This document shows positions 3-13,877 of a stretch of DNA of 64,000 nt, in pieces (the first letter of the stretch is position 1; each line of letters starts with the position of its first letter). The DNA is taken from assembly GCA_965215475.1 (NCBI GenBank), contig OZ244061.1, positions 3,431,282 through 3,495,281 of the forward strand, written 5' to 3'. This DNA comes from Rhodothermales bacterium (GTDB lineage: Bacteria > Bacteroidota > Rhodothermia > Rhodothermales > Bin80). Position numbers and translations under genes: made by a program. The notes below the pieces were generated by a model. That model was given only the letters and a program-made list of their open reading frames with translations. It did no database searches and was not told where the DNA came from.

Positions 3-806
3 CGTGATGATTGGGTTGGTAACCCAAGACATATCTATCCCACGGCCCTTCATCGACAGCTGCATATTCGACAGGAGCGACAGGTTTTGACACAATCATC
101 GGCAATTACGACGATCAATCACCCAATTCGGGATGCCTTAAAAAAAAGACATTCTGATATAAATATAAGGTCGGAAGTGATTCCCCATGGATTTGAGGAA
201 TACGAATTTCCTACAAAAATATCTGCTGGTGAAAAGCTGAAACTTGTTTATACAGGTATTTTTTATGATGCGCAGACGCCGGAGTATTTTTTGAGAGGCA
301 TCAGCGAATTTTTAAGAAGGAAGCCTGAAATTCGCTCTAAAATCTCAGCCATCTTTGCTGGCCTGGTGCCGAATACGTTCACGGATCTAATTCGGACCCT
401 GAAATTAGAAGACGTTGTTCAATACCTAGGATACGTAGAACATGCCCGTGTCATTGAATTGCAACAGGAAGCAGATGTATTGTGGATGGCCATTGGCAGC
501 AGACCAGGCTCAGGCTCGTCAGGTATCTCGACAGGCAAACTATATGAGTATATGGGGACAAGGAAACCAATACTGGCACTAATTCCACCAGGAACTGCTC
601 GTCAAACTTTACAACGCTATGGCGCGGCATACATAGCCGAACCGGAAAGCGAGCCCGATATTATTCAAGTCCTAAAGAAACTAACGACGGACTGGGAGAA
701 ACAGGAATTTCCAAGGCCAGATGAATCTTTTGTATCTACGTTCAGTCGGAATCGTCTGACAGAAACGCTAGCAGGTGTATTGGATTCTGTAATCAAAGCG
801 ACCTAG
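3..806 (+). CDS. glycosyltransferase (GT-B/GT4-like), C-terminal part; 5' end outside the window
   Basis: The frame of track ORF 87..806 stays open back to base 3 (RDDWVGNPRHIYP...), so the TTG at 87 is probably internal. The C-terminal region resembles GT1/GT4 (STGKLYEYMGTRKPILAL). Confidence 0.55.
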   Translation, partial: RDDWVGNPRHIYPTALHRQLHIRQERQVLTQSSAITTINHPIRDALKKRHSDINIRSEVIPHGFEEYEFPTKISAGEKLKLVYTGIFYDAQTPEYFLRGISEFLRRKPEIRSKISAIFAGLVPNTFTDLIRTLKLEDVVQYLGYVEHARVIELQQEADVLWMAIGSRPGSGSSGISTGKLYEYMGTRKPILALIPPGTARQTLQRYGAAYIAEPESEPDIIQVLKKLTTDWEKQEFPRPDESFVSTFSRNRLTETLAGVLDSVIKAT

Positions 807-818
807 GGTTGGTAGTAT

Positions 819-1226
819 ATGCGCCAGAAAAAGCTTGAATTAGAGTTGTCGTCTACGTTTAAAGATCTGGACAATGCAGTTGAGGCTTTACAGGATTTTG
901 TCCCTACGCTTGATCTTGAAGAAAACTTAGCCTATCGGGTCATCTTGCTTGCGAGTGAAGCATTGACGAATGCAATGGAACATGGAAATAAATGGGATAA
1001 AGAGAAAAAAACAATCCTTTATCTGGGCAAGGAGGGAGATCAGATCGAGTTAACGGTGACCGATGAGGGCGATGGGATTTTCTGGACAGAACGAGATCCG
1101 TTGACGGAGGCAAATCGATTGGCTGATCATGGTCGGGGGCAGTATTTCATGCGAACCATGGCAGATGAGGTTCATGTTGAGAGTCACGGTCGCAGAATCC
1201 GTTTGATATTTTTCTGTCAAACTTAG
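819..1226 (+). CDS. anti-sigma regulatory factor, serine-protein kinase (RsbW/SpoIIAB-like GHKL ATPase)
   Basis: 135 aa with N-box EALTNAMEHGN, G1 DEGDGI and G2 GRGQYFM, typical of small anti-sigma kinases. Confidence 0.7.
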   Translation: MRQKKLELELSSTFKDLDNAVEALQDFVPTLDLEENLAYRVILLASEALTNAMEHGNKWDKEKKTILYLGKEGDQIELTVTDEGDGIFWTERDPLTEANRLADHGRGQYFMRTMADEVHVESHGRRIRLIFFCQT

Positions 1227-1988
1227 TCTGCTAGGAGGCATCCATAAGTAATACCCCATTTAGCGTGATAAGGGTTGAACCAAAAAAGCAATGATGTCAC
1301 GACCAGCGGCTTGCCGCTTTCATCTGAACTACCTGTACAATTGCGTACGAAATGCGAAAAATGGAGGCAGAGCGTATCTGGATCTACTTAGATATTTTAT
1401 CTGAAACGTGTGTCATTGTAAAAACTCTGTATGCGCTTACTACTAATGGATCTCTTGTTGTATTTTTGTAGCGTACTGTTCGTGTTGAGTGTCAAAAATC
1501 TACCAGAAGAGTAATAACGAGAAAATCTAAAAAATGCAAAACTTAACGCAGGATATAAAAATTGCAGATTTTCTTTCTCACACAAACGATTCCAACTGAA
1601 TCCCAAGCAAATACACTTGATGTAACTAGTAAAGGAGGTTCTTGCAATCACCGGGTAGCTTTTTACTACTTTTTTACATATCGGGAAAATGCCTGTCAAA
1701 CAACAATGCAAAATTCTTAGGAATAGATCTAGTATATGTGAGTATTGAACTCAGTCGAACAATTAAAAGTGAGCAGAATCAATGACTGATCTTGTTGTTT
1801 ACCATTGCTCGTGATCGTATCCATTACAAGCAGATTCACTGCTCTGATGTAACCACCGAGCCGAGTAAGATAGATTCAAGTAATGGCTACACGTCCTGAG
1901 TTCCTACGTGAACAGTTTGCATAATAGCCATGGAACAGTTTCAGTAGGATCAATCCCATGAACTGCCGTTAGGTAATTCTTCAAAGCC

Positions 1989-2768
1989 ATGCAACAAGAA
2001 TACTTTATATGCACGGGAGATATCATTCCTGAAGATGATGAACTTGGAATGCCTGAAACTCCTCTCAGATATAGACAAGATGATTGGACTACAACCGTAG
2101 CTATTCGGTGCTCGAAAGTATTCATAAAAATAGAAGGGGATTGTAACGATGCTAATATTGATCCTCGTGCGCTACGTGATCTTGTATTCAGGGAATCTCA
2201 ATACATTGCTCAGATGTGGCTTTCAATAATCGGTTTTGTGGAAGGCGCCTCCTACTCAGTACGAATTTCTACAATTGAAGATTCTTCCGGTTGTATACGA
2301 GAGCTGGGAGCGAAACCCAAATTTGGATCTAGTGGTATAGATTTGGAAATTGAAAATGCAAAAGAGATTGCAGGTTTCGTTGCAGCATTATCAATTACAA
2401 ACGAGCATTTTCGAAAGGCTCTACGTGATTATATGATAGCCCTGAACTTTACATTAGACTCTCCATTTTTCCTATATCGCTCGCTGGAAACTCTATCCAA
2501 GCATTTTGATGGTGATTGGAACAAAATGCACCAATCGTTAGGAACTAGTCGATCAGCGATTGAAGAATTCATAAAAAGAGCTGCGGACGAGGTGCGTCAC
2601 GGTATATCATTAGATGAACAAACGTTGTTCAATGCATATCGCGGGCATTATGATGCGCTAAAGTATGTTAGAGACACGCTCCTTACTTTCCTCCTTAGGA
2701 ACAGTGAAACAAGTCTGGACATGCAAATACCCGAACTGCATCTACCTAACTCCCAACATGATTGCTAA
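1989..2768 (+). CDS. hypothetical protein, first gene of the PHP-ATPase operon
   Basis: 259-aa ORF that ends 15 nt before the next gene on the same strand. I recognise no motif, TM segment or signal peptide. Confidence 0.55.
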   Translation: MQQEYFICTGDIIPEDDELGMPETPLRYRQDDWTTTVAIRCSKVFIKIEGDCNDANIDPRALRDLVFRESQYIAQMWLSIIGFVEGASYSVRISTIEDSSGCIRELGAKPKFGSSGIDLEIENAKEIAGFVAALSITNEHFRKALRDYMIALNFTLDSPFFLYRSLETLSKHFDGDWNKMHQSLGTSRSAIEEFIKRAADEVRHGISLDEQTLFNAYRGHYDALKYVRDTLLTFLLRNSETSLDMQIPELHLPNSQHDC

Positions 2769-2783
2769 TTTTGGTACAAATAA

Positions 2784-5549
2784 ATGAATGAATGGAAATG
2801 GGAAGGCTCACGTTGGTGGAAGTTTGACTTCCACACACATACCCCTGCCTCTACTGATTATGGTAAAGGCCCAAATCAGTCAGCTTTGAGAAATGTTACA
2901 CCAAAAGAATGGCTACTTGACTACATGCGTGCAGGCATTGATTGCATTGCAATTACTGATCATAACAGCGGTATGTGGGTTGATCGAATCAAAGATGAAC
3001 TTGATCAACTGAAAGACGAATATCATGAAGATTTTAGGCCGATCTATGTGTTTCCTGGCGTAGAAATTTCGGTTCATGGCAATGTCCATCTTTTAGCGAT
3101 TTTTGGATGTGATAAAAAAACATCAGACATTGACTCTCTTCTTGGGAGGGTTCAATTTGACGGCGACAAAGGCTCAAGTAATGCTGTCACATGTCTTTCG
3201 TTAACTGAGGTTATTGATGTAGTTACTTCGGTAGGGGCAATAGCAATTCCTGCACACGTAGATAAAGAAAAGGGGCTTTTTAAGGCTGTTCAAGGTCAAA
3301 CATTGGAACAAGTGCTAGACAGAAAAGATATTTTTGCAATGGAGTTGATTGATCCTGATCACGAGAAACCGAGAATTTATTCCGATAAAAAGCTTGGATG
3401 GACAGAAGTGCTTGGAACAGACAGCCATCATCCATCTAACAATTCACAGAGGAAATTCCCAGGTAGTCACTTTACCTGGGTCAAAATGGGGGGGCCTAGC
3501 ATTGAAGGATTGCGCTTAGCATTGCTTGATGGGAATATGTCTGTGATTCGATCCGACAGGCGAGTAGGTAATCCAAATGATCATGCAAGAATGGTATTAG
3601 AATCCATGGAGGTTTTGCGGGCCCGTTATCTTGGTCGTAGAGAATCCTTTAAAATTGGGTTTAATCCGTGGCTCACCTCTGTTATCGGCGGGAGGGGAAC
3701 CGGTAAATCTACTCTTATTGAGTTTTTACGTACGGCTCTGCGAAGGACTGATGAGTTGCCGAATGGTTTAAAAGAGGAATTGGAGCAATATCAACAAATT
3801 TACTCCGGCAGGCAAGGAGGAGGTCTTCTTACAGATGAAACAGAGATCAAAATATGTTATCGGAAAGATGATTCTCGGTTTCGCATACAGTGGGCTCCAA
3901 GTGGGGGGCTTGGATCTATTGAAAAAGAGACTGAAAAAAAATGCTGGCATCCCGTCAAAGGAGATGTTTTACAGCGGTTTCCTGTAAGGATTTACAGTCA
4001 AAAACAGATATTTGAACTTGCAAAACAACCACTTGCCCTACTCAACATAATTGATGAATCTCAGAGAGTTAATCGTCGCTATTGGAACAAAAAATGGGAA
4101 ATTGAAGAAAGCAGGTTTCTCTCACTGCGTGCAAAAATTAGAGAATTGAGGGCAGGATTTCCCGAGGAATCCCGTCTTTCTGGTGAATTGGATGACATAG
4201 AAAGAAAACAGAGAATTTTTGAGCAGGCCGGATATGCTAGTATATTGCAGAATTTTCAAAAGTTACGTCGGCAGCAGCGTAGTATTGAGATTTGGGAGGA
4301 GAGCTGGGCAGATATTGCGGAGCAATTGCAGAAGATTGCAGATGAAATGGTTCCTGGCTACCTTGAAGATGAAACTTTTAAAGTAGAATTAAGTGTGGAT
4401 GCTGAATTGCAAGATCTTGCTAATTCAGTACGTGAACGCCTGAATGAATTATCCATGAAAACTGGATCCCTTGCTTCCCAAGCGAACAGCATCTTATCGC
4501 AATGGAAGATTGATAAGGACAAAACTTCTTGGAAACAAGAATTGATATCCATTGAGCAGGCCTATCAGCAACTCAAAAAAAACTTGGGAAAAGAGGAAGA
4601 AAATGGCCATGTCAGTTATGGTATGCTTGTTCAAAGAAGGCAGCTAATTGAGCGAGAACTTGCAGAAATTTCGGGATCCAAAGAATTAATCAAAGATCTT
4701 GAAAAACAGGCTGACGAGCAGTTGAATAAGATGATTAGAATCCGTAGAGAATTGACTGAAATTCGCCGAAATTTCTTAAATGAAGTTCTAGATGGAAATC
4801 AATACGTTCGCATAAGACTTATCCCTTATGGAGCAACGGATACAGTTGAATCGGAATTTCGTCAATTGCTTCAAAGAGAAGGTCCTATATTTGAGAAGGA
4901 TGTAGGTTCACCAAACGGTGGAGGATTACTCGGAGGTCTTTACATGGAAAATCTTGACTGCACTGAGAGTATCGAGAACAATCTTACCGAGCTAAAAAAC
5001 AAAATCAAAGATATTGCCTCTGGTAAGGGCAAATTTTCAGTTACAGATAAACGCTTTGCTGCACATGTTTCCAATCTCAATCCTGAGGTTATAGATCGCA
5101 TAGATGCGTGGTTTCCGAATGATTCTCTGGATGTCCAATACAATGCAACGGGGAAAGGCAACAATTTTCTCTCAATAGAAGAAGGTTCGCCTGGGCAAAA
5201 AACAGCTGCACTCCTAGCATTCCTCCTATCCTATGGAGATGAACCCCTGATCTTGGATCAACCAGAAGACGACCTTGATAATCTTTTGATATACGATTTG
5301 ATTGTGACCCAGTTAAGGAATATGAAACGTAGCAGGCAAATCATTGTAGTGACACATAACGCGAATATAGTTGTCAATGGTGATTCAGAACTTGTTGTTG
5401 CTCTTGCCACAAATCATGGTGAAACGAGAAAAGATTGCAACGGAAGCCTTCAAGAGAACAAGGTAAGAGAAACTATCTGTACAATTATGGAGGGAGGAAG
5501 TAAAGCATTTGAAGATCGCTATCGTCGTATTGCACCCACACAAAGATAA
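2784..5549 (+). CDS. PHP-domain phosphoesterase fused to a Rad50/SbcC-like ABC (SMC-type) ATPase; Ppl-like
   Basis: 921 aa. N-terminal PHP motifs: FDFHTHT, AITDHNS, PAHVD, GTDSHH. ATPase motifs: Walker A GGRGTGKST (nt 3687..3713), then about 300 aa of E/K/L/Q-rich coiled coil, signature-like SPGQKT, Walker B LILDQPEDDLD and H-loop VVTHNANIV. Confidence 0.85.
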   Translation: MNEWKWEGSRWWKFDFHTHTPASTDYGKGPNQSALRNVTPKEWLLDYMRAGIDCIAITDHNSGMWVDRIKDELDQLKDEYHEDFRPIYVFPGVEISVHGNVHLLAIFGCDKKTSDIDSLLGRVQFDGDKGSSNAVTCLSLTEVIDVVTSVGAIAIPAHVDKEKGLFKAVQGQTLEQVLDRKDIFAMELIDPDHEKPRIYSDKKLGWTEVLGTDSHHPSNNSQRKFPGSHFTWVKMGGPSIEGLRLALLDGNMSVIRSDRRVGNPNDHARMVLESMEVLRARYLGRRESFKIGFNPWLTSVIGGRGTGKSTLIEFLRTALRRTDELPNGLKEELEQYQQIYSGRQGGGLLTDETEIKICYRKDDSRFRIQWAPSGGLGSIEKETEKKCWHPVKGDVLQRFPVRIYSQKQIFELAKQPLALLNIIDESQRVNRRYWNKKWEIEESRFLSLRAKIRELRAGFPEESRLSGELDDIERKQRIFEQAGYASILQNFQKLRRQQRSIEIWEESWADIAEQLQKIADEMVPGYLEDETFKVELSVDAELQDLANSVRERLNELSMKTGSLASQANSILSQWKIDKDKTSWKQELISIEQAYQQLKKNLGKEEENGHVSYGMLVQRRQLIERELAEISGSKELIKDLEKQADEQLNKMIRIRRELTEIRRNFLNEVLDGNQYVRIRLIPYGATDTVESEFRQLLQREGPIFEKDVGSPNGGGLLGGLYMENLDCTESIENNLTELKNKIKDIASGKGKFSVTDKRFAAHVSNLNPEVIDRIDAWFPNDSLDVQYNATGKGNNFLSIEEGSPGQKTAALLAFLLSYGDEPLILDQPEDDLDNLLIYDLIVTQLRNMKRSRQIIVVTHNANIVVNGDSELVVALATNHGETRKDCNGSLQENKVRETICTIMEGGSKAFEDRYRRIAPTQR

Positions 5550-6790
5550 TGTTGAATAGTATCGAAGAGCTAATACGCAGGATACGTATGGGGGAGGACA
5601 GCTCACTTGAGCTTAAAGCGGTTGAATTTAAAGGAGATCGGATTGTTGGGCCATCTCGTGATAAACTCGCCGATGAAATTGCATCTATGGCCAATAAGCG
5701 CGACTGTGTAATTGTTTTAGGAGTAGACGATAAAACTCGTGAAATCATCGGTATACCTCTGATGCATATGGATGCCACTGAGCGGTATATCTATGAAATT
5801 TGCAACGACAGTATAACGCCGCCTGTGTCCTTTGACTTATTTCGTATGGAAATCCCTGACAATATAGGTGCCTCAAGATATATTATTAAGGTGGAAATCC
5901 CTCGTAGTCTCTTTGTCCATGAAAGCCCAGGCGGATATTTTCAGCGCCAAGGAAGTTCATTACGCAAAATGTCACCGGAAAATCTAGCCCGTCTATTCCA
6001 GCAACGCAGCCAAGCAAGACTGATTAGATTTGAAGAACAATCAGTTCCCCGATCAAGCGTAGACGATTTGCGTAAAGAATTATGGGAAAGGTATACGACA
6101 CGTTCCAGCGAGTCGTCAGATGTTGTTCTTCTGAAACGTTCTTTGTTAGCTAAAGAGGGAAATGGAGCCCCGGTTGCCTCAGTAGCAGGCATATTATTCT
6201 GCTGTGAATATCCAGAAAAATTTTTGCCTAGCGCGTTTATTGAAGCCGTACGCTATCGGGGAATCAAACAGGACACTAATTATCAGATTGATGCAAAAAG
6301 AATTCGCGGTCCGATCGATCAGCAGATAAGAGAAGTTATGATTTTTCTAAAGAAGAATCAGACTATTGGAGCTGTCAAGAACCCTCATCGCATTGAAACA
6401 CCACAGTTCAGCGAGCGAGCCGTATTTGAAGCTTTGGTTAATGCTGTGGCACATAGAGATTATTCAGTCTTTGGATCGAAAATACGATTCTTTATGTTTG
6501 ATGACAGATTGGAAATTTATTCACCGGGAGCTCTGCCCAACACCATAACCGTTGATGTCATACATCTTCGCCAATCGACACGAAATGAGCTGATTACTAG
6601 TTTGCTCGCAGAGACGCCAGTGGCAGAGACAATTGGGAATGTAGAGCGTGATTTTTATATGGAAAAACGCGGGGATGGGGTGCCGATTATAATAGATGAA
6701 AGCGAAAGGCTATCGGGTAAAAAGCCTGTCTACACACTCATCAATGATTCTGAACTCTTGCTGACTATTTATTCTGCGAAAACGAGTTGA
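5549..6790 (+). CDS. AlbA_2 (Schlafen-type) DNA-binding domain + HATPase_c_4 (RecG-C-like) protein
   Basis: 413 aa. The start overlaps the upstream stop (TAATG at 5547..5551). N-terminal GEDSSLELKAVEF...LADEIASMAN...VLGVDD is AlbA_2-like. C-terminal EALVNAVAHRDYS...IYSPGALPN is HATPase_c_4-like. Confidence 0.8.
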   Translation: MLNSIEELIRRIRMGEDSSLELKAVEFKGDRIVGPSRDKLADEIASMANKRDCVIVLGVDDKTREIIGIPLMHMDATERYIYEICNDSITPPVSFDLFRMEIPDNIGASRYIIKVEIPRSLFVHESPGGYFQRQGSSLRKMSPENLARLFQQRSQARLIRFEEQSVPRSSVDDLRKELWERYTTRSSESSDVVLLKRSLLAKEGNGAPVASVAGILFCCEYPEKFLPSAFIEAVRYRGIKQDTNYQIDAKRIRGPIDQQIREVMIFLKKNQTIGAVKNPHRIETPQFSERAVFEALVNAVAHRDYSVFGSKIRFFMFDDRLEIYSPGALPNTITVDVIHLRQSTRNELITSLLAETPVAETIGNVERDFYMEKRGDGVPIIIDESERLSGKKPVYTLINDSELLLTIYSAKTS

Positions 6791-7063: not shown

Positions 7064-7186
7064 CAGCTCATCGAGAAGGGTGGAGGGTTCAGGCCCTGTG
7101 AAGCCCTGGCAACCCCCCGCGAGGATTGGACCCCTCGTGCGGAAGGTGCCACTTCCTGCCCTGCGTTAGCGGGGATAGATGAGCGG
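7064..7186 (+). promoter_or_regulatory. SAM-I (S-box) riboswitch upstream of metY-metX
   Basis: The P1 arms CTCATC (7067..7072) and GATGAG (7178..7183) enclose the conserved core GAGAAGGGTGGAGGGTTCAGGCCCTGTGAAGCCCTGGCAACC ... AAGGTGCCACTTCCTGCC. It lies 137 nt upstream of a methionine-biosynthesis operon. Confidence 0.85.
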
Positions 7187-7319: not shown

Positions 7320-8654
<1,335 letters not shown>

Positions 8655-8718: not shown

Positions 8719-9780
8719 ATGCCAAGAATTATCAATATACCGACCTTTGAATTTGAGAATGGAGAAGTTCTGAGTGAAGTTCCTGTGGGGTACGAGCGCT
8801 GGGGAGAATTGAATGAAAGGAGAGACAATGTGATTGTTGTTGGGCATTCTCTTACCAGCACGCCAGACGCCCAGTCTTGGTGGCATGGGTGTATAGGCCC
8901 AGGCAAAGCATTGGATACAGACAAATATTATGTTGTATGTGCGAATGTGATTGGTTCTCCCTATGGCACGATTTCTCCAATCTCAATCAATCCAGAGACT
9001 GGTCTAGCTTATCGGGATACGCTTCCACAGGCAAGTATAAGAGATACGGTTCGGCTCCACAGAAAGCTCCTAGACTTCCTTGGTGTTCGTAAGATTGCAT
9101 TTGTAATTGGTGGAAGTATGGGGGGAATGCAGGCACTTGAATGGGCTTACTATGGCCGTGATTATGTTCGGGGAATTGTACCCATTGCGGTAGGAGGGCG
9201 ACACTCTTCATGGTGTATTGCATGGAGCGAGGCACAGCGACAGGCGATTTATTCAGATCCAAACTGGGAGAATGGTACCTACGAACTGGATTCTCCTCCT
9301 CAAAATGGACTAGCTGTAGCGCGCATGATGGCAATGATATCGTACCGATCGCTTGGGTCGTTTGAATCCCGATTCGGTCGGGGTAGAAATCGGGCCGGTT
9401 CCTTCAGAGCGGAAACCTGGCTTCATCATCATGGAGATAAGATTATTAACCGGTTTGATCCTGCCTGCTATGTATATCTGACCCGTTTGATGGATACGCA
9501 TGATGTCGCTCGGGATAGGGATGAGTATGAAGTTACCCTTGGGGCGATTACGCAGCCAACACTGGCGATTGGAATCCGCTCGGATGTTCTATATCTGCTT
9601 GAGGAATTGGAAGAACTTTGCCGATATATTCCACATTCGGAGTTAGCTGTCATGGAAGGGCTCCATGGTCACGACACGTTTTTGATAGATCAGGATGAGC
9701 TCAATGAGATGGTGTTGGTGTGGCGTCAACATCACATTGATCCACTTGTTGATTCAGTTGTAGGTTGTAAGGTAGGTTAA
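8719..9780 (+). CDS. metX: homoserine O-acetyltransferase
   Basis: 353 aa alpha/beta hydrolase with the nucleophile elbow GGSMGGMQALEW. The MetX-type N-terminus includes HSLTS...WW...IGPGKALDTDKYYVVCANVIGS. Confidence 0.9.
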   Translation: MPRIINIPTFEFENGEVLSEVPVGYERWGELNERRDNVIVVGHSLTSTPDAQSWWHGCIGPGKALDTDKYYVVCANVIGSPYGTISPISINPETGLAYRDTLPQASIRDTVRLHRKLLDFLGVRKIAFVIGGSMGGMQALEWAYYGRDYVRGIVPIAVGGRHSSWCIAWSEAQRQAIYSDPNWENGTYELDSPPQNGLAVARMMAMISYRSLGSFESRFGRGRNRAGSFRAETWLHHHGDKIINRFDPACYVYLTRLMDTHDVARDRDEYEVTLGAITQPTLAIGIRSDVLYLLEELEELCRYIPHSELAVMEGLHGHDTFLIDQDELNEMVLVWRQHHIDPLVDSVVGCKVG

Positions 9781-10143: not shown

Positions 10144-11697
10144 ATGCAGGTTGAGATTGACAATATAACGGATGAGGAGATACGTCAGCGCTTGGTAATA
10201 GGAGAAGATCAGCACTGGGAATTTAAGGAGATCAAGTTCAAAGGTGATAGTCCGAGCAGCCCTAGACGGGAGGATCTTGCGGATGAGATTATAGCTTTTG
10301 CGAATGCAAATGGCGGAGTCCTTCTTTGTGGGGTTTCCGATGATGGTCAACTTCAGGATATGTATCCCAAACAGTTGGCCTCCCTTAATCAGGCACTATC
10401 TAATGTATGTAGCGATTCCGTGGAGCCCCCGATACGGATTCGCATTCATCACCGCATACTTGATGAAAAAGTCTATTTACTTGTGGAGGTCCCGAAGGGA
10501 GATTCTGCTCATGAGCGTTTTGGTCGCGCATTCATCCGAGTGGGTGGAAGCAAACGTCAACTTAGTGACGATGAGACGCTACGGCTTGCACAAAGCCGTG
10601 CAAAGGCTAGATACTTGTGGTTTGATCAACGGATTGTTCCCGAAACTGGGCTAAACTCTTTGAATGAGAGCTTGTGGGAACCACTATTAAGTGCGGAGGG
10701 GCAGAGTGATCCGGAAAAGGGCTTGATGAATTTGGGTCTGCTAGCTGAGGATGAAGTTGGGGTATACCGAGCTACGGTCTCAGGTATACTCCTATGTACG
10801 AATTCTCCTCAACAATGGCTTCCTCACGCTATGATTATGGCGACCATGTACAGAGGCAAGGATCGCGCATCAGGTCAGTTGGATGCACAAGAAATTGAAG
10901 GTCCACTTCCTCAGCAGATTTTTGATGCGGTCAAATTTATAGTTCGTAATATGCGTGTTGCTGCACGTAAATCTCCTGCCCGCGAAGATATGCCTCAGTA
11001 TAGCAAAGTTGCAGTATTTGAGGCTATAGTTAACGCGGTAATTCATCGGGACTACTCAATATATTCTAGTCGAATCCGACTGTCAATGTTTAAGGATCAC
11101 CTGGAAATTGATTCCCCGGGTCAACTCCCTAACGGGATGACCATTGGGATGATGAATTCCAAGCAGTCAACACGTAATGAGACACTCGCTTCAGTGTTTG
11201 CGAGACTGCCCGTAGGTGCTATTCCAGGATCGGAACACCGTAGGTACATGATGGAAAAGCGAGGTGACGGAGTTTCATTAATCATAAAATCTACCCATGA
11301 GACTACAGGGATTGAACCCAAATATACTCTGATTGACCACTCTAATCTGGTTTTAACCATTCCGGCTGCCAAATTTGAATTCACTCCAGCGGATGCTACC
11401 ATTACGATTCATTCTGAATCCGAACCGATTTTAGGAGTTGATGTTTTGGTGCTGTTTCCCAACAAAACTTGGAAGCGGGCCAGCACGAATGAGGCTGGTG
11501 AAGCAGAGTTTGATTTACTTTCTACGCACTTGCCTATGACCGTCTTGGTTGCAAATCCAGGATACCGTGCTAGGATAGTAACGGAGTGGATTCCTCGTGA
11601 TGGAGGATTATTGGTGGAGTTGGCTCCTCTTAAAAGTGGTGGCTCAGTTATTTCCCAGATTCCACTGGGCGGATCCCGGGCCTACATGGTCGATTAA
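10144..11697 (+). CDS. AlbA_2 (Schlafen-type) + HATPase_c_4 protein with a C-terminal carboxypeptidase-regulatory-like beta-sandwich; possibly frameshifted at the 3' end
   Basis: 517 aa, a paralog of 5549..6790 (GEDQHWEFKEIKF...LADEIIAFAN; EAIVNAVIHRDYS...IDSPGQLPN). The extra C-terminal segment is ITIHSESEPILGVDVLVLFPNKTWKRASTNEAGEAEFDL...VLVANPGYRA. Confidence 0.8.
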   Translation: MQVEIDNITDEEIRQRLVIGEDQHWEFKEIKFKGDSPSSPRREDLADEIIAFANANGGVLLCGVSDDGQLQDMYPKQLASLNQALSNVCSDSVEPPIRIRIHHRILDEKVYLLVEVPKGDSAHERFGRAFIRVGGSKRQLSDDETLRLAQSRAKARYLWFDQRIVPETGLNSLNESLWEPLLSAEGQSDPEKGLMNLGLLAEDEVGVYRATVSGILLCTNSPQQWLPHAMIMATMYRGKDRASGQLDAQEIEGPLPQQIFDAVKFIVRNMRVAARKSPAREDMPQYSKVAVFEAIVNAVIHRDYSIYSSRIRLSMFKDHLEIDSPGQLPNGMTIGMMNSKQSTRNETLASVFARLPVGAIPGSEHRRYMMEKRGDGVSLIIKSTHETTGIEPKYTLIDHSNLVLTIPAAKFEFTPADATITIHSESEPILGVDVLVLFPNKTWKRASTNEAGEAEFDLLSTHLPMTVLVANPGYRARIVTEWIPRDGGLLVELAPLKSGGSVISQIPLGGSRAYMVD

Positions 11698-12383: not shown

Positions 12384-13877
12384 ATGATAAAATACAAAAC
12401 CCTTTGTTCCCTAACATGGATCGGTGTTTGCCTAATCATAGGGCCAAAGATAACATATGCTCAGTCACACACCAACGAAGGCAAACTTTTAGAGTTAGGA
12501 GAAGCTTGGTTAGTAGGTATAGAGATTGAAAGAAAGAGAGCACGGGTTGCAGAAACAGCATGGTGGACGACTCAAGCAATTAGGTTGGATGCTGAGGCAA
12601 GGAGGATAGAAGAATTAGAGGTAGCACTAACAACTTTAGACTCAGAGCTAAAAAAAATAGCAAACACCAAACTGGGTTTTTTTGACTATTTGATAGGTAT
12701 AGTTGCGGATGCATTAGAGGACGCAGATGGGGTTAGTGATTGGAACTTCGTTGAATATGTAGAAAGATTTGAGTTTGCAAAGATGGTAACGTCAGCAATT
12801 CAAACAGAATTTGAATTAACATGGGATGGAAGATTGAAGAATGAAAAAATACAGTTGCAGGAAGAATTGTTAGCACTAAGGGAGAAACTGGGACTTCATG
12901 AGAATTGGAATCCACTACTAGATGAAATACCTCCAGAGGCAATTGCATCTGTTATAGCACAAAAAATAGATTTGGCAACACTTGCACATGTAAACAAATC
13001 TCAATCCCAGGCACGACAGGTAACGATACGAACCAAGAAATTTCAACAAAAACTGCAAAGTGAGATAGTCAAAATTAGAGAAGTGGTGGGTGCAGAAATG
13101 CATAGATTAATTGATTCTCACCAGTCGACATTGTCTGAAGAGGACAAAGAACGACGACATGAAATTATCGCACTCGCTGCCACAGAAGTTGGGTTATCGT
13201 TGCCAAAAAGAGGATTGCTGTATGATGCAGATATGTTAGTAAGAGAATCCTTACGGAAATTTGCAGTTATAGCGGAAGAAGAAGGGTTTGAATCAAAATG
13301 GTTGCCGACGGATGCAGTACTAGTGTCATTTGCAGAAGGAGCCACACTTTTGGCAAGAGGTGCAGAGTTACTCGGGTACATTGAACAAGGATTTTGGGCA
13401 AACCCGCTTCCGACACTTGGGGCTGAGTGGGTAGAATTGGCTGAGGCAGTAGAGGAACGAGCAAAAAGGGTGGAGCAAATTGTAGAATGGTTAGCGGAAA
13501 GGGAGGCAGTGGAGGTAGAGCAGGAAGTGGCGATGATACTTCGGGTAGAACGTATAGCAAATGAGGCAAGAAGGGCGGAAATTGATAATGCGGGATTGGT
13601 GGCAAAACAGGCAGAGAGTATGCAATTACTGCTTGAAGGTCGGGCTAAACGAGAGGAAATTGAAGCAGCCCGGTGGGCAAGTTTATTGGAAGAGGCTTCT
13701 TCGCTGGCAACGGAAGCGAAATGGCTGGCAATTGAAGGAAAGCGCTTAGTTGAACGAGAGACCTATATAAAAAGTGTGAGACCTATGGAAGGGCGTTCAA
13801 ATTTGGATAGACAAGCTGGCAGACTTGGAGTAAGGGCATCACGTATCGCTGAGCAGGTAATACTGCTTAAGAACTGA
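12384..13877 (+). CDS. secreted coiled-coil protein, unknown function
   Basis: 497 aa. Signal-peptide-like N-terminus (LTWIGVCLIIGPKITYAQ), then a long A/E/R/L/K-rich region with heptad character. Confidence 0.55.
   Translation: MIKYKTLCSLTWIGVCLIIGPKITYAQSHTNEGKLLELGEAWLVGIEIERKRARVAETAWWTTQAIRLDAEARRIEELEVALTTLDSELKKIANTKLGFFDYLIGIVADALEDADGVSDWNFVEYVERFEFAKMVTSAIQTEFELTWDGRLKNEKIQLQEELLALREKLGLHENWNPLLDEIPPEAIASVIAQKIDLATLAHVNKSQSQARQVTIRTKKFQQKLQSEIVKIREVVGAEMHRLIDSHQSTLSEEDKERRHEIIALAATEVGLSLPKRGLLYDADMLVRESLRKFAVIAEEEGFESKWLPTDAVLVSFAEGATLLARGAELLGYIEQGFWANPLPTLGAEWVELAEAVEERAKRVEQIVEWLAEREAVEVEQEVAMILRVERIANEARRAEIDNAGLVAKQAESMQLLLEGRAKREEIEAARWASLLEEASSLATEAKWLAIEGKRLVERETYIKSVRPMEGRSNLDRQAGRLGVRASRIAEQVILLKN

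Follow-up and report, generated by a model that had tools for sequence, protein, structure and literature searches.

The three genes near the beginning of the window (the 64-kb stretch of DNA analysed here) probably constitute a horizontally acquired cassette of about 4.8 kb, in which a two-gene core, TrlF and TrlG, related to the phage-restricting protein Ppl is preceded by a lineage-restricted add-on, a gene for a DUF8168-family protein. The core is probably defensive. It is the DUF8168 gene that is new in this position, and as an add-on to the core it is confined to one lineage.

Organisation and surroundings of the cassette

The first-pass annotation had described three closely packed open reading frames on the same strand, and re-calling of the genes returned all of them between positions 1989 and 6790 (Table 1), together with the 15-nt gap between the DUF8168 gene and trlF and the overlap of the trlF stop with the trlG start (...AGATAATGTTG), where one base is common to the TAA stop and the ATG start. 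Judging from this overlap, TrlG is translationally coupled to TrlF. The same annotation had called the block clearly AT-rich. It is AT-rich, but modestly so: the cassette genes have a GC content of 0.41–0.43 (GC3 0.32–0.38), compared to a mean of 0.456 for the window (sd 0.023 in 2-kb windows) and 0.47–0.49 for metY/metX, while the upstream glycosyltransferase gene (0.44) lies little above the cassette and differs from it slightly.

Table 1. Positions of the cassette genes and of neighbouring features in the window.
Feature	Position	Strand	Description
Upstream non-coding gap	1227..1988	.	Presumed promoter site; GC 0.39
DUF8168-family protein, 259 aa	1989..2768	+	First gene of the cassette, lineage-specific
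TrlF-family (Ppl-like) protein, 921 aa	2784..5549	+	PHP phosphoesterase fused to Rad50/SMC-type ABC ATPase head
TrlG ortholog, 413 aa	5549..6790	+	SLFN_AlbA_2, middle region, C-terminal HATPase_c_4 (GHKL-like)
SAM riboswitch leading metY	7065..7185	+	Rfam RF00162, 79.6 bits vs gathering score 44.4
Paralog of gene 3	10144..11697		Start 3.35 kb downstream; 40% identity

The gap ahead of the cassette, previously described as free of ORFs, contains short minus-strand ORFs only. Neither a tRNA or Rfam match nor a small same-strand ORF of the trlR type was found in it, and it has no similarity to the DNA upstream of DUF8168 in five other loci (L006, L007, L094, L001, L004). A scan for sigma-70-type promoters and terminators, which is of little value for a Bacteroidota-like lineage, gave matches not above shuffled expectation. 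On the other side the SAM riboswitch opens the next, unrelated transcription unit and thereby marks the downstream limit of the cassette. The neighbours in the window are housekeeping genes (glycosyltransferase, RsbW-like kinase, metY/metX, asd and lpt genes). When integration signatures were sought at the cassette, no tRNA was found, and flanking direct or inverted repeats were only of chance length. The paralog of the third gene that had been noticed further downstream is present; it is a distant family member, scoring about 300 bits versus 500–750 bits for true TrlG orthologs, and no link between it and the cassette was found.

The TrlF-TrlG pair, Ppl and the TRL operon

TrlF carries an N-terminal PHP phosphoesterase (about residues 8–260), and all motifs that had been quoted for it are present, those of the PHP domain (FDFHTHT 14–20, AITDHNS 56–62, PAHVD 156–160, GTDSHH 211–216) as well as those of the ATPase (Walker A GGRGTGKST 302–310, SPGQKT 802–807, LILDQPEDDLD 822–832, VVTHNANIV 855–863). 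The catalytic motifs are thus intact, and an alignment of 24 homologs shows no variation at H17, H19, H60, E94, H158, D213, H215, K308, D825 and H858. A helix-type stretch splits the ATPase head as proposed, but it comprises about 250 aa (about residues 421–670) and not about 300; judged by composition it is charged and poor in Pro and Gly. No zinc hook was identified in this insert. The Rad50-like character of the ATPase is borne out by PDB profile matches to Rad50/SMC heads, but these are weak (E = 2e-4). Like TrlF, Rad50-Mre11/SbcCD combines an ABC ATPase head split by a helical insert with a metal-dependent nuclease; TrlF has its nuclease fused in cis, as a PHP domain, whereas Rad50-Mre11/SbcCD uses the Mre11/SbcD phosphodiesterase, and with its short insert TrlF shows marginal similarity to this system.

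The designation of the middle gene as Ppl-like is correct: the PADLOC Ppl model (PDLC02208) matches with 4e-155 (residues 8–916 against 4–892 of 894), and this full-length homology covers both the PHP domain and the split ABC ATPase. TrlF scores 619.6 bits against the NCBIfam family TrlF_fam_ATP (NF045780, cutoff 350; residues 8–916 against model positions 2–943 of 944). Against Ppl_antiphage (NF042955) it reaches 608.9 bits and stays below the equivalog cutoff of 1000, which places it outside the tested Ppl clade; six relatives are also below this cutoff (525–621 bits). The Ppl used in experiments stands alone as a gene and belongs to a narrower clade.

The domains assigned to the third gene were recovered with Pfam (SLFN_AlbA_2, 3.4e-16; HATPase_c_4, 7.6e-19). 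Within the AlbA_2 domain, E16-x4-E21-x-K23 is invariant and D60/D61 is conserved among 54 orthologs. The eukaryotic Schlafen nucleases SLFN13 and SLFN11 may be comparable, as the E-x4-E and the downstream Asp of TrlG are spaced like the catalytic residues E205, E210 and D248 of SLFN13, motif spacing being the whole of this comparison. One AlbA_2 unit was detected in TrlG, and it is followed by a GHKL-like module and not by a helicase domain. On the strength of these motifs, TrlG may be a Schlafen-type nuclease.

We surveyed the pairing in the best-scoring 80 of 509 TrlF relatives in GTDB representatives, a species-level set that is biased to relatives of the window TrlF by this selection and in which 75 loci were evaluable. 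TrlG lies directly downstream and overlaps the TrlF stop in 55 of the 75. These loci span Rhodothermales, Thermodesulfobacteriota, Latescibacterota, Acidobacteriota, Planctomycetota, Myxococcota, Nitrospirota, Chloroflexota and Proteobacteria, and the pair was also found on a Burkholderia conjugative plasmid. TrlG orthologs of the surveyed loci show 52–80% identity, and the overlap with TrlF is typically 8 nt (1 nt in the window). Pairwise identities of TrlF and TrlG co-vary (r = 0.80 for 1431 pairs), and those TrlF copies that lack TrlG group together in a single clade. The wide pairing, the co-variation and the fact that the pair has been named in the literature support the view that the core is a two-gene module and not a new triad.

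The name comes from the temperature restriction locus (TRL) of Photorhabdus laumondii, the operon trlR-trlF-trlG (Hapeshi et al. 2020, PMC7554251). Its TrlF and TrlG are the products of PluDJC_RS01880 and PluDJC_RS01875, and the accession listed for TrlF is WP_011144772.1 (PMC7554251). As in the window, a large PHP ("histidinol phosphatase") ATPase is tightly linked to a following AlbA_2 + HATPase_c_4 protein, a partner that is often misannotated as RecG; the two loci are likened by gene order, domains and NCBIfam family. The earlier view that this gene arrangement is unlike any named system therefore had to be given up, since genes 2 and 3 correspond to TrlF and TrlG of this published operon (PMC7554251) and NCBIfam names the TrlF family. 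Neither is the pairing of genes 2 and 3 a novelty, as it is the rule across phyla in the surveyed loci. Differences concern the first gene, which in the TRL encodes TrlR, a 79-aa putative transcription factor, instead of DUF8168, and the host, which belongs to a different phylum.

DUF8168, the first gene of the cassette

No family had been recognised for the product of the first gene, and our scans agreed with this, giving no match in PADLOC, NCBIfam, PHROGs or the local Pfam. Precomputed Pfam tags assign the protein to PF26504 and PF26505 (DUF8168), both of which are lacking from the Pfam copy scanned. A homolog-profile search of 1.84 billion proteins collected 397 cluster representatives, and a metagenome scan with the DUF8168 profile gave one locus only. 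The AF2 model based on an alignment of 129 sequences (pLDDT 92.5, pTM 0.88) predicts an N-terminal beta-sheet with a long helix (about residues 1–105) and a C-terminal six-helix bundle (about 124–238). It superseded a first model from 20 sequences, which reached a pLDDT of 61 and produced meaningless fold matches. Foldseek found no structural relative of the later model (best E 0.014 in PDB and 0.008 in BFVD, TM about 0.2), and a sequence-profile search of the PDB returned nothing meaningful. A confident model that has no structural relative makes DUF8168 a candidate for a new defence-related fold. Conserved throughout the family are G10, D147, A151, R164, E167, W177 and R203-H204-G205. Two further ideas were rejected: a HEPN assignment (possible R-x6-H at about 197–204), because only R203-H204-G205 is conserved and Foldseek finds no HEPN, and a fusion of DUF8168 to TrlF in a 421-aa homolog (P0016), the N-terminal extension of which is spurious.

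DUF8168 is directly followed by TrlF in the window and in L006, L007 and L094, four intact triads from Rhodothermales-type metagenomic loci in which the two genes overlap by 4 nt at one extreme and lie 27 nt apart at the other. The flanks of the four are all different and their upstream DNA is not conserved; the block that they share starts exactly at the DUF8168 start codon. Contigs of matching length make two further triads probable (P0015 with P0048, P0009 with P0032). Among ten close DUF8168 clusters that were examined or inferred, six are thus directly upstream of an intact TrlF (four verified, two probable), and two more are part of a degraded cassette copy. Such a recurrence in unrelated genomic contexts would suit a true three-component system, in which DUF8168 is an obligate third subunit, a sensor or specificity factor, of a TrlF-TrlG nuclease complex. 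We regard this as unlikely. DUF8168 was found at none of the 80 other TrlF loci (the best 80 of 509 relatives), which include the closest, L012 and L013, and no DUF8168 remnant was detected upstream of TrlF in these two. Conversely, the DUF8168 ORF is still intact in L004 and L008, where the cassette has decayed by insertion of IS and toxin-antitoxin elements and TrlF is destroyed. In L001, L096, L097, L100, L104 and L105 the gene stands alone or has other partners, and more distant members of the family either stand alone or are coupled to a 223-aa protein that is unrelated. Furthermore, dN/dS is 0.16–0.58 for DUF8168 versus 0.07–0.12 for TrlG, indicating that DUF8168 is not under the level of constraint that acts on TrlG. 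A contrast of dN/dS between degraded and intact loci was discarded as uninterpretable, since the ratio depends on divergence time.

The three-gene unit proposed by the first-pass annotation therefore stands in part: it recurs in four intact loci, but it is narrow, being limited to one Rhodothermales-like group and absent from the 80 TrlF loci. Restriction of the triad to close relatives, which the first-pass annotation had named as speaking against it, applies in part, in that the triad is narrow in its distribution and DUF8168 is mostly solo elsewhere.

Stacking of defence genes side by side is common, and DUF8168 might be an independent single-gene module, a stand-alone gene of defence or of a mobile element that has a new fold and just happens to lie beside TrlFG. 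Its other surroundings fit with this: a solo copy adjoins ApeA (L096), the copy in L001 shares an island with a reverse transcriptase, a methyltransferase, HicA and an IS element, and further copies are close to HNH, RM and IS1595 genes (L104, L105) or to a DUF4011 helicase and an IS element (L100). The conserved polar residues D147, R164, E167, R203 and H204 also suggest an active or ligand-binding site of its own. Nevertheless, we give this explanation a minor, if real, chance, as DUF8168 lies very close to TrlF in each of the four intact triads, DUF8168 and TrlFG were inherited together while their proteins diverged by about 40%, and a PADLOC scan of 129 family members gave scattered single matches with no model matched consistently.

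Considering both sets of observations, we prefer the view that DUF8168 is an add-on to the TrlF-TrlG core. It would be co-transcribed and would move with TrlFG in the Rhodothermales-type group while staying outside the conserved core, in the position that TrlR has in Photorhabdus and PglXI has in the copies embedded in BREX operons. Its most likely role, which we hold weakly, would be that of a modulator, i.e., a sensor, an adaptor or a restraint on TrlFG.

Defence context and possible function

The TrlF-TrlG pair is embedded in known defence systems. At least 13 loci place it inside PglXI-type BREX operons, with a PglXI-like gene upstream, and this was confirmed by PADLOC in L021 and L054. 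The BREX-embedded cassette has PglXI on one side and BrxH/PglZ/BrxA on the other; in L021, L017, L053 and others it is located between PglXI and PglZ/BrxH and overlaps PglXI by 4 nt. While BREX (PglXI, type 3-like) thus carries the pair as cargo, the cassette of the window is free-standing between housekeeping genes, and no PglZ, PglX/PglXI or BrxC was found within about 20 kb of it. Among the other neighbours of the cassette are, in L006, an OLD-like ATPase, in L094, Peptidase_M78 together with DUF4411 and, in L092, a PLD restriction enzyme.

Ppl itself is said to have been reported as a single-gene anti-phage system by Gao et al. in 2020. It works alone, whereas the TrlF of the window is coupled to TrlG at the genomic level, as in most surveyed loci. 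The ppl gene restricts T7 and is countered by Bas63 gp130 (PMC11482910), and a review states that E. coli Ppl is a 3′-5′ exonuclease regulated by nucleotides (PMC12904381). By analogy, TrlF would share this chemistry: its PHP domain would be a 3′-5′ DNA exonuclease under the control of the Rad50-like ABC ATPase with its putative coiled-coil insert, acting at DNA ends and restrained by bound nucleotides, as far as the review statement on E. coli Ppl can be transferred. TrlG, with its Schlafen/AlbA_2 and GHKL-like ATP-binding parts and made by translational coupling, would form a complex with TrlF and could either license or target TrlF or be a second, Schlafen-type nuclease effector. On infection, TrlF-TrlG would then degrade nucleic acid or halt growth.

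The published account of the TRL is one of temperature and growth arrest and not of defence. Growth arrest of Photorhabdus at 36 °C was relieved by point, stop and IS mutations in trlG and by deletion of the whole operon, so that in genetic terms the arrest depends on trlG; mutants of trlF were not recovered although it is the larger target (PMC7554251), which means that TrlF may be dispensable for this phenotype. As these are the sole direct genetics of TrlFG and revealed no phage phenotype (PMC7554251), the cassette could serve stress or temperature growth control, or, given the weak likeness of TrlF to Rad50/SMC heads, Rad50/Mre11-like DNA repair with a PHP nuclease, instead of immunity. 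We consider this quite improbable. The cassette has a patchy, horizontal distribution and a low GC content, it occurs in BREX operons and on a plasmid and decays readily, and the related Ppl restricts phages (PMC11482910). Moreover, autoimmunity of an abortive-infection-type system would be expected to show itself as growth arrest under stress.

A defensive TrlF-TrlG core thus remains the preferred reading. We tentatively propose, without giving it much weight, that DUF8168 acts as a trigger sensor or restraint together with TrlF-TrlG in a three-component variant and, independently of this, that most "Ppl-like" genes are part of a two-gene TrlF-TrlG system with a toxic Schlafen-like effector.

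Our data tie together three literatures, those on Ppl defence, on the Photorhabdus temperature restriction locus and on bacterial Schlafen/AlbA_2 proteins, a connection that was not made in the literature we found. PADLOC treats Ppl as a single gene, while the TrlF family, a much larger sister group, normally comes with a coupled TrlG in the surveyed loci, and BREX operons often carry the pair as cargo. DUF8168 adds a small family of about 400 clusters that is found near defence and mobile genes. This raises the questions whether TrlG is an effector or a licensing factor of the PHP exonuclease, and whether temperature restriction is an autoimmune side effect of defence. If TrlG is indeed a toxic effector, this would recast the temperature restriction of Photorhabdus as autoimmunity of a phage-defence system.

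The three-gene block and its surroundings

The three genes at 1989–6790 are packed on the same strand, and their open reading frames are exactly those described in the first-pass annotation (see the table below). A gap of 15 nt separates gene 1 from gene 2, while the stop codon of gene 2 (TAA) and the start codon of gene 3 (ATG) share one base. GC content of the block is 0.41–0.43 (GC3 0.32–0.38), versus 0.47–0.49 for metY/metX and a window mean of 0.456 (sd 0.023). The block is AT-rich as proposed, but the shift is only modest.

The SAM riboswitch is an ordinary methionine-regulon leader, and housekeeping genes make up the remaining neighbourhood (asd, lptA/B-like genes, DAHP synthase, release factor, DsbD, exonuclease I). 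The upstream glycosyltransferase ORF (239 aa, Glycos_transf_1 domain) has a TTG start, and next comes a HATPase_c_2 protein of 135 aa (RsbW-like anti-sigma kinase); an adjoining anti-sigma antagonist was not obvious. For the 497-aa ORF no match was found in Pfam, PADLOC or NCBIfam; its region shows unusually strong GC skew (0.27–0.35) and AT skew (0.15–0.21).

Features in the window and in other genomic loci (L-numbers) fetched as relatives for comparison
Feature	Locus	Position	Strand	Remarks
Group-1 glycosyltransferase + HATPase_c_2 ORFs	window	87–1226	+	upstream of three-gene block
DUF8168 gene (gene 1)	window	1989–2768	+	ORF, 259 aa
TrlF gene (gene 2)	window	2784–5549	+	ORF, 921 aa
TrlG gene (gene 3)	window	5549–6790	+	ORF, 413 aa
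SAM riboswitch, RF00162	window	7065–7185	+	79.6 bits; leads next transcription unit, metY
metY	window	7323–8654		after SAM riboswitch
metX	window	8719–9780		after metY
AlbA_2 + HATPase_c_4 paralog	window	10144–11697	+	517 aa, 40% identical to TrlG
497-aa ORF	window	12384–13877	+	hydrophobic N-terminus, long E/A/R/K-rich helical repeats
Degraded cassette	L004	8001–14440		trlF left as C-terminal fragments only
Degraded cassette	L008	8001–14898		trlF left as C-terminal fragments only
DUF8168 homolog + 223-aa protein	L097	1075–2561		near HsdM and GmrSD genes
Peptidase_M78 (ImmA/IrrE-like) + DUF4411 pair	L094	5529–7281		~720 bp upstream of DUF8168–TrlF–TrlG triad
BREX operon with embedded TrlF, with or without TrlG, translationally coupled	L021	1–13837
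BREX operon, as for L021	L054	1–15424
BREX operon, as for L021	L017	15–11916

Identity and spread of the TrlF–TrlG pair

Every PHP and ATPase motif quoted earlier for the 921-aa protein was located: PHP motifs at residues 14–20, 56–62, 156–160 and 211–216, Walker A at 302–310, the ABC signature at 802–807, Walker B at 822–832 and the H-loop at 855–863. Across 24 aligned homologs drawn from many phyla, none of the catalytic residues varies. The stretch from ~421 to 670 is charged and poor in Pro/Gly, and its composition fits a helical or coiled-coil insert; a coiled coil splitting the ATPase is plausible, but it would span roughly 250 aa and not the ~300 aa claimed. The PADLOC Ppl model was matched end to end (4e-155), which supports the Ppl-like identity assigned to this gene. 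In NCBIfam the protein scores 619.6 bits for 'TrlF family AAA-like ATPase', above the cutoff of 350, but its 608.9 bits for the narrow 'anti-phage protein Ppl' equivalog fall short of the 1000 required. Rad50/SMC heads were only weak matches in the profile search, and no solved structure of the TrlF family was found.

The temperature restriction locus (TRL) of Photorhabdus laumondii is a three-gene operon, induced by temperature upshift, that comprises trlR (putative regulator, 79 aa), trlF (large, with the annotation 'histidinol phosphatase') and trlG, whose AlbA_2 plus HATPase_c_4 product has been wrongly annotated as RecG (Hapeshi et al. 2020, PMC7554251). Since gene 3 has exactly the TrlG architecture and gene 2 passes the TrlF family cutoff, genes 2 and 3 are a TrlF–TrlG pair. 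This is an architecture that already has a name, although it was not previously presented as a defence system. Two thirds of the supposedly unnamed three-gene system are therefore known, and the variant led by DUF8168 is new.

In Photorhabdus, spontaneous trlG missense, stop or IS mutants or deletion of the operon permit growth at 36 °C, and no trlF mutants were found (PMC7554251). These trlG genetics show that the arrest phenotype requires TrlG, and the absence of trlF mutants is compatible with TrlG as the effector. E16-x4-E21-x-K23 is invariant in TrlG, and D60/D61 are also invariant or conserved; E16, E21 and D60/D61 match the catalytic residues E205, E210 and D248 of SLFN13 (PMC5862951) by spacing only.

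A survey with one genome per GTDB species gave 509 TrlF relatives, the best 80 of which were fetched. Among these, 75 loci had sufficient downstream sequence, and in 55 of them a TrlG ortholog lies directly 3′ of TrlF on the same strand, 52–80% identical across all 413 residues and almost always starting 8 nt ahead of the TrlF stop. The pair occurs in Rhodothermales, Thermodesulfobacteriota, Spirochaetota, Latescibacterota, Acidobacteriota, Planctomycetota, Myxococcota, Nitrospirota, Chloroflexota and Proteobacteria, and pairwise identities of TrlF and TrlG are correlated (r = 0.80, 1431 pairs). A conjugative plasmid of Burkholderia thailandensis also bears it, annotated as 'TrlF family AAA-like ATPase' and 'ATP-binding protein'. 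TrlF copies without TrlG group in one clade that includes enterobacterial copies, e.g., the solo gene beside a prophage in E. coli ACN002. The ACN002 gene (L093; NZ_CP007491.1, 304367–307120) lies between paoABCD and the prophage tail region and carries a TrlF-family rather than a Ppl annotation; a solo TrlF-family gene is present in 17 of 5426 complete E. coli genomes (13 chromosomes, 4 plasmids).

The paralog in the window has an extra C-terminal tail of ~105 aa and stands solo just after metX, without a TrlF-like partner. Because it scores about 300 bits against TrlG, versus 500–750 for orthologs, sequence comparison marks it as a family member only and not as a duplicate of the cassette trlG.

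DUF8168 as a lineage-restricted first gene

The 259-aa protein, described earlier as lacking a recognisable motif, indeed had no match in local Pfam, PADLOC, NCBIfam or PHROGs; only precomputed tags (PF26504 and PF26505) assign it to DUF8168, a small family of 397 cluster representatives (E ≤ 0.001, 1.84 billion proteins). The structure modelling proposed for it gave a confident AlphaFold2 model (pLDDT 92.5, pTM 0.88; 129-sequence alignment), which predicts an N-terminal sheet and long helix followed by a C-terminal six-helix bundle. Foldseek found no structural relative in PDB (best E 0.014, TM about 0.2) or BFVD. G10, D147, A151, R164, E167, W177 and R203-H204-G205 are conserved family-wide, and DUF8168 evolves faster than TrlG (dN/dS 0.16–0.58 versus 0.07–0.12).

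Contexts were compared for close homologs (58–65% identity). Intact triads are present in the window, L006, L007 and L094, with unrelated flanks in all four; DUF8168 and TrlF overlap by as much as 4 nt or lie up to 27 nt apart. Contigs of matching length make two further triads probable. No conserved DNA was found upstream of DUF8168 among cassette copies. In L004-5 and L008-11 DUF8168 and TrlG are intact, but the bulk of trlF is replaced by a SocA/Panacea pair and IS1595 and methyltransferase fragments. The degraded state is common to two diverged cassette variants (L004, L008), which contain split N6_N4 methyltransferase ORFs and IS1595 transposase pieces.

Elsewhere the gene is solo: in L001-3 within an island with a reverse transcriptase, methyltransferase, HicA and IS element, in L096 adjoining ApeA, and in more distant members (L100, L104, L105) near IS, HNH or RM genes or a large helicase. 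In L097 a homolog (about 46% identity) is translationally coupled by a 4-nt overlap to an unrelated, family-less 223-aa protein; the two genes may form a separate kind of DUF8168 module. DUF8168 is absent from all of the best 80 of 509 TrlF loci; no remnant was found in L012 and L013, the nearest TrlF relatives (Rhodothermales, 72% identical TrlF). Intact triads recur in four loci, all within one narrow lineage.

We interpret TrlF–TrlG as the conserved functional unit and DUF8168 as a first gene, restricted in lineage, that moves together with the cassette in a Rhodothermales-type group. The first-gene slot is variable: DUF8168 fills it here, TrlR in Photorhabdus, PglXI in BREX and, on the plasmid from Burkholderia, an ORF of 67 aa. 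DUF8168 could be an independent module stacked beside TrlFG, but the tight and repeatedly co-transferred arrangement counts against this and gives a slight edge to an accessory or modulator of TrlFG.

Links to BREX and phage defence

A ~930-aa methyltransferase precedes TrlF with a 4-nt overlap in 13 of the best 80 of 509 loci, and in several of these a SNF2 helicase or PglZ is next, after TrlG or directly after TrlF. PADLOC gave the order BrxC–PglXI–[TrlF–TrlG]–PglZ–BrxA for L021 and BrxC–(GHKL ATPase)–PglXI–[TrlF]–BrxH–PglZ–BrxA for L054. From these neighbours we conclude that the cassette is recurrent cargo within PglXI-type BREX operons. BrxC of L021 consists of two ORFs (37–939 and 958–3789), and the GHKL ATPase of L054 has 622 aa. 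Also near the cassette are genes for an OLD-like ATPase in L006, for Peptidase_M78 and DUF4411 in L094 and, in L092, for a restriction enzyme of the PLD type.

T7 is restricted by the relative Ppl, which Bas63 gp130 counteracts (PMC11482910). According to a 2026 review (PMC12904381), E. coli Ppl is an ssDNA 3′-5′ exonuclease. NTPs in its PHP and NTPase domains keep it inactive, and nucleotide depletion together with 3′-OH ends from phage homing endonucleases activates it. In the mechanism we prefer, TrlF would be a PHP exonuclease that has a Rad50-like head and is gated by nucleotides, and TrlG would bind nucleic acid, either licensing TrlF or acting as a Schlafen-type nuclease in its own right.

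The literature searched gave no paper that connects phages with either TrlG or the TRL locus. The DUF8168-led variant of the already known TrlF–TrlG pair is new and so, as far as this literature shows, is the connection of the TRL operon with Ppl and with BREX cargo.
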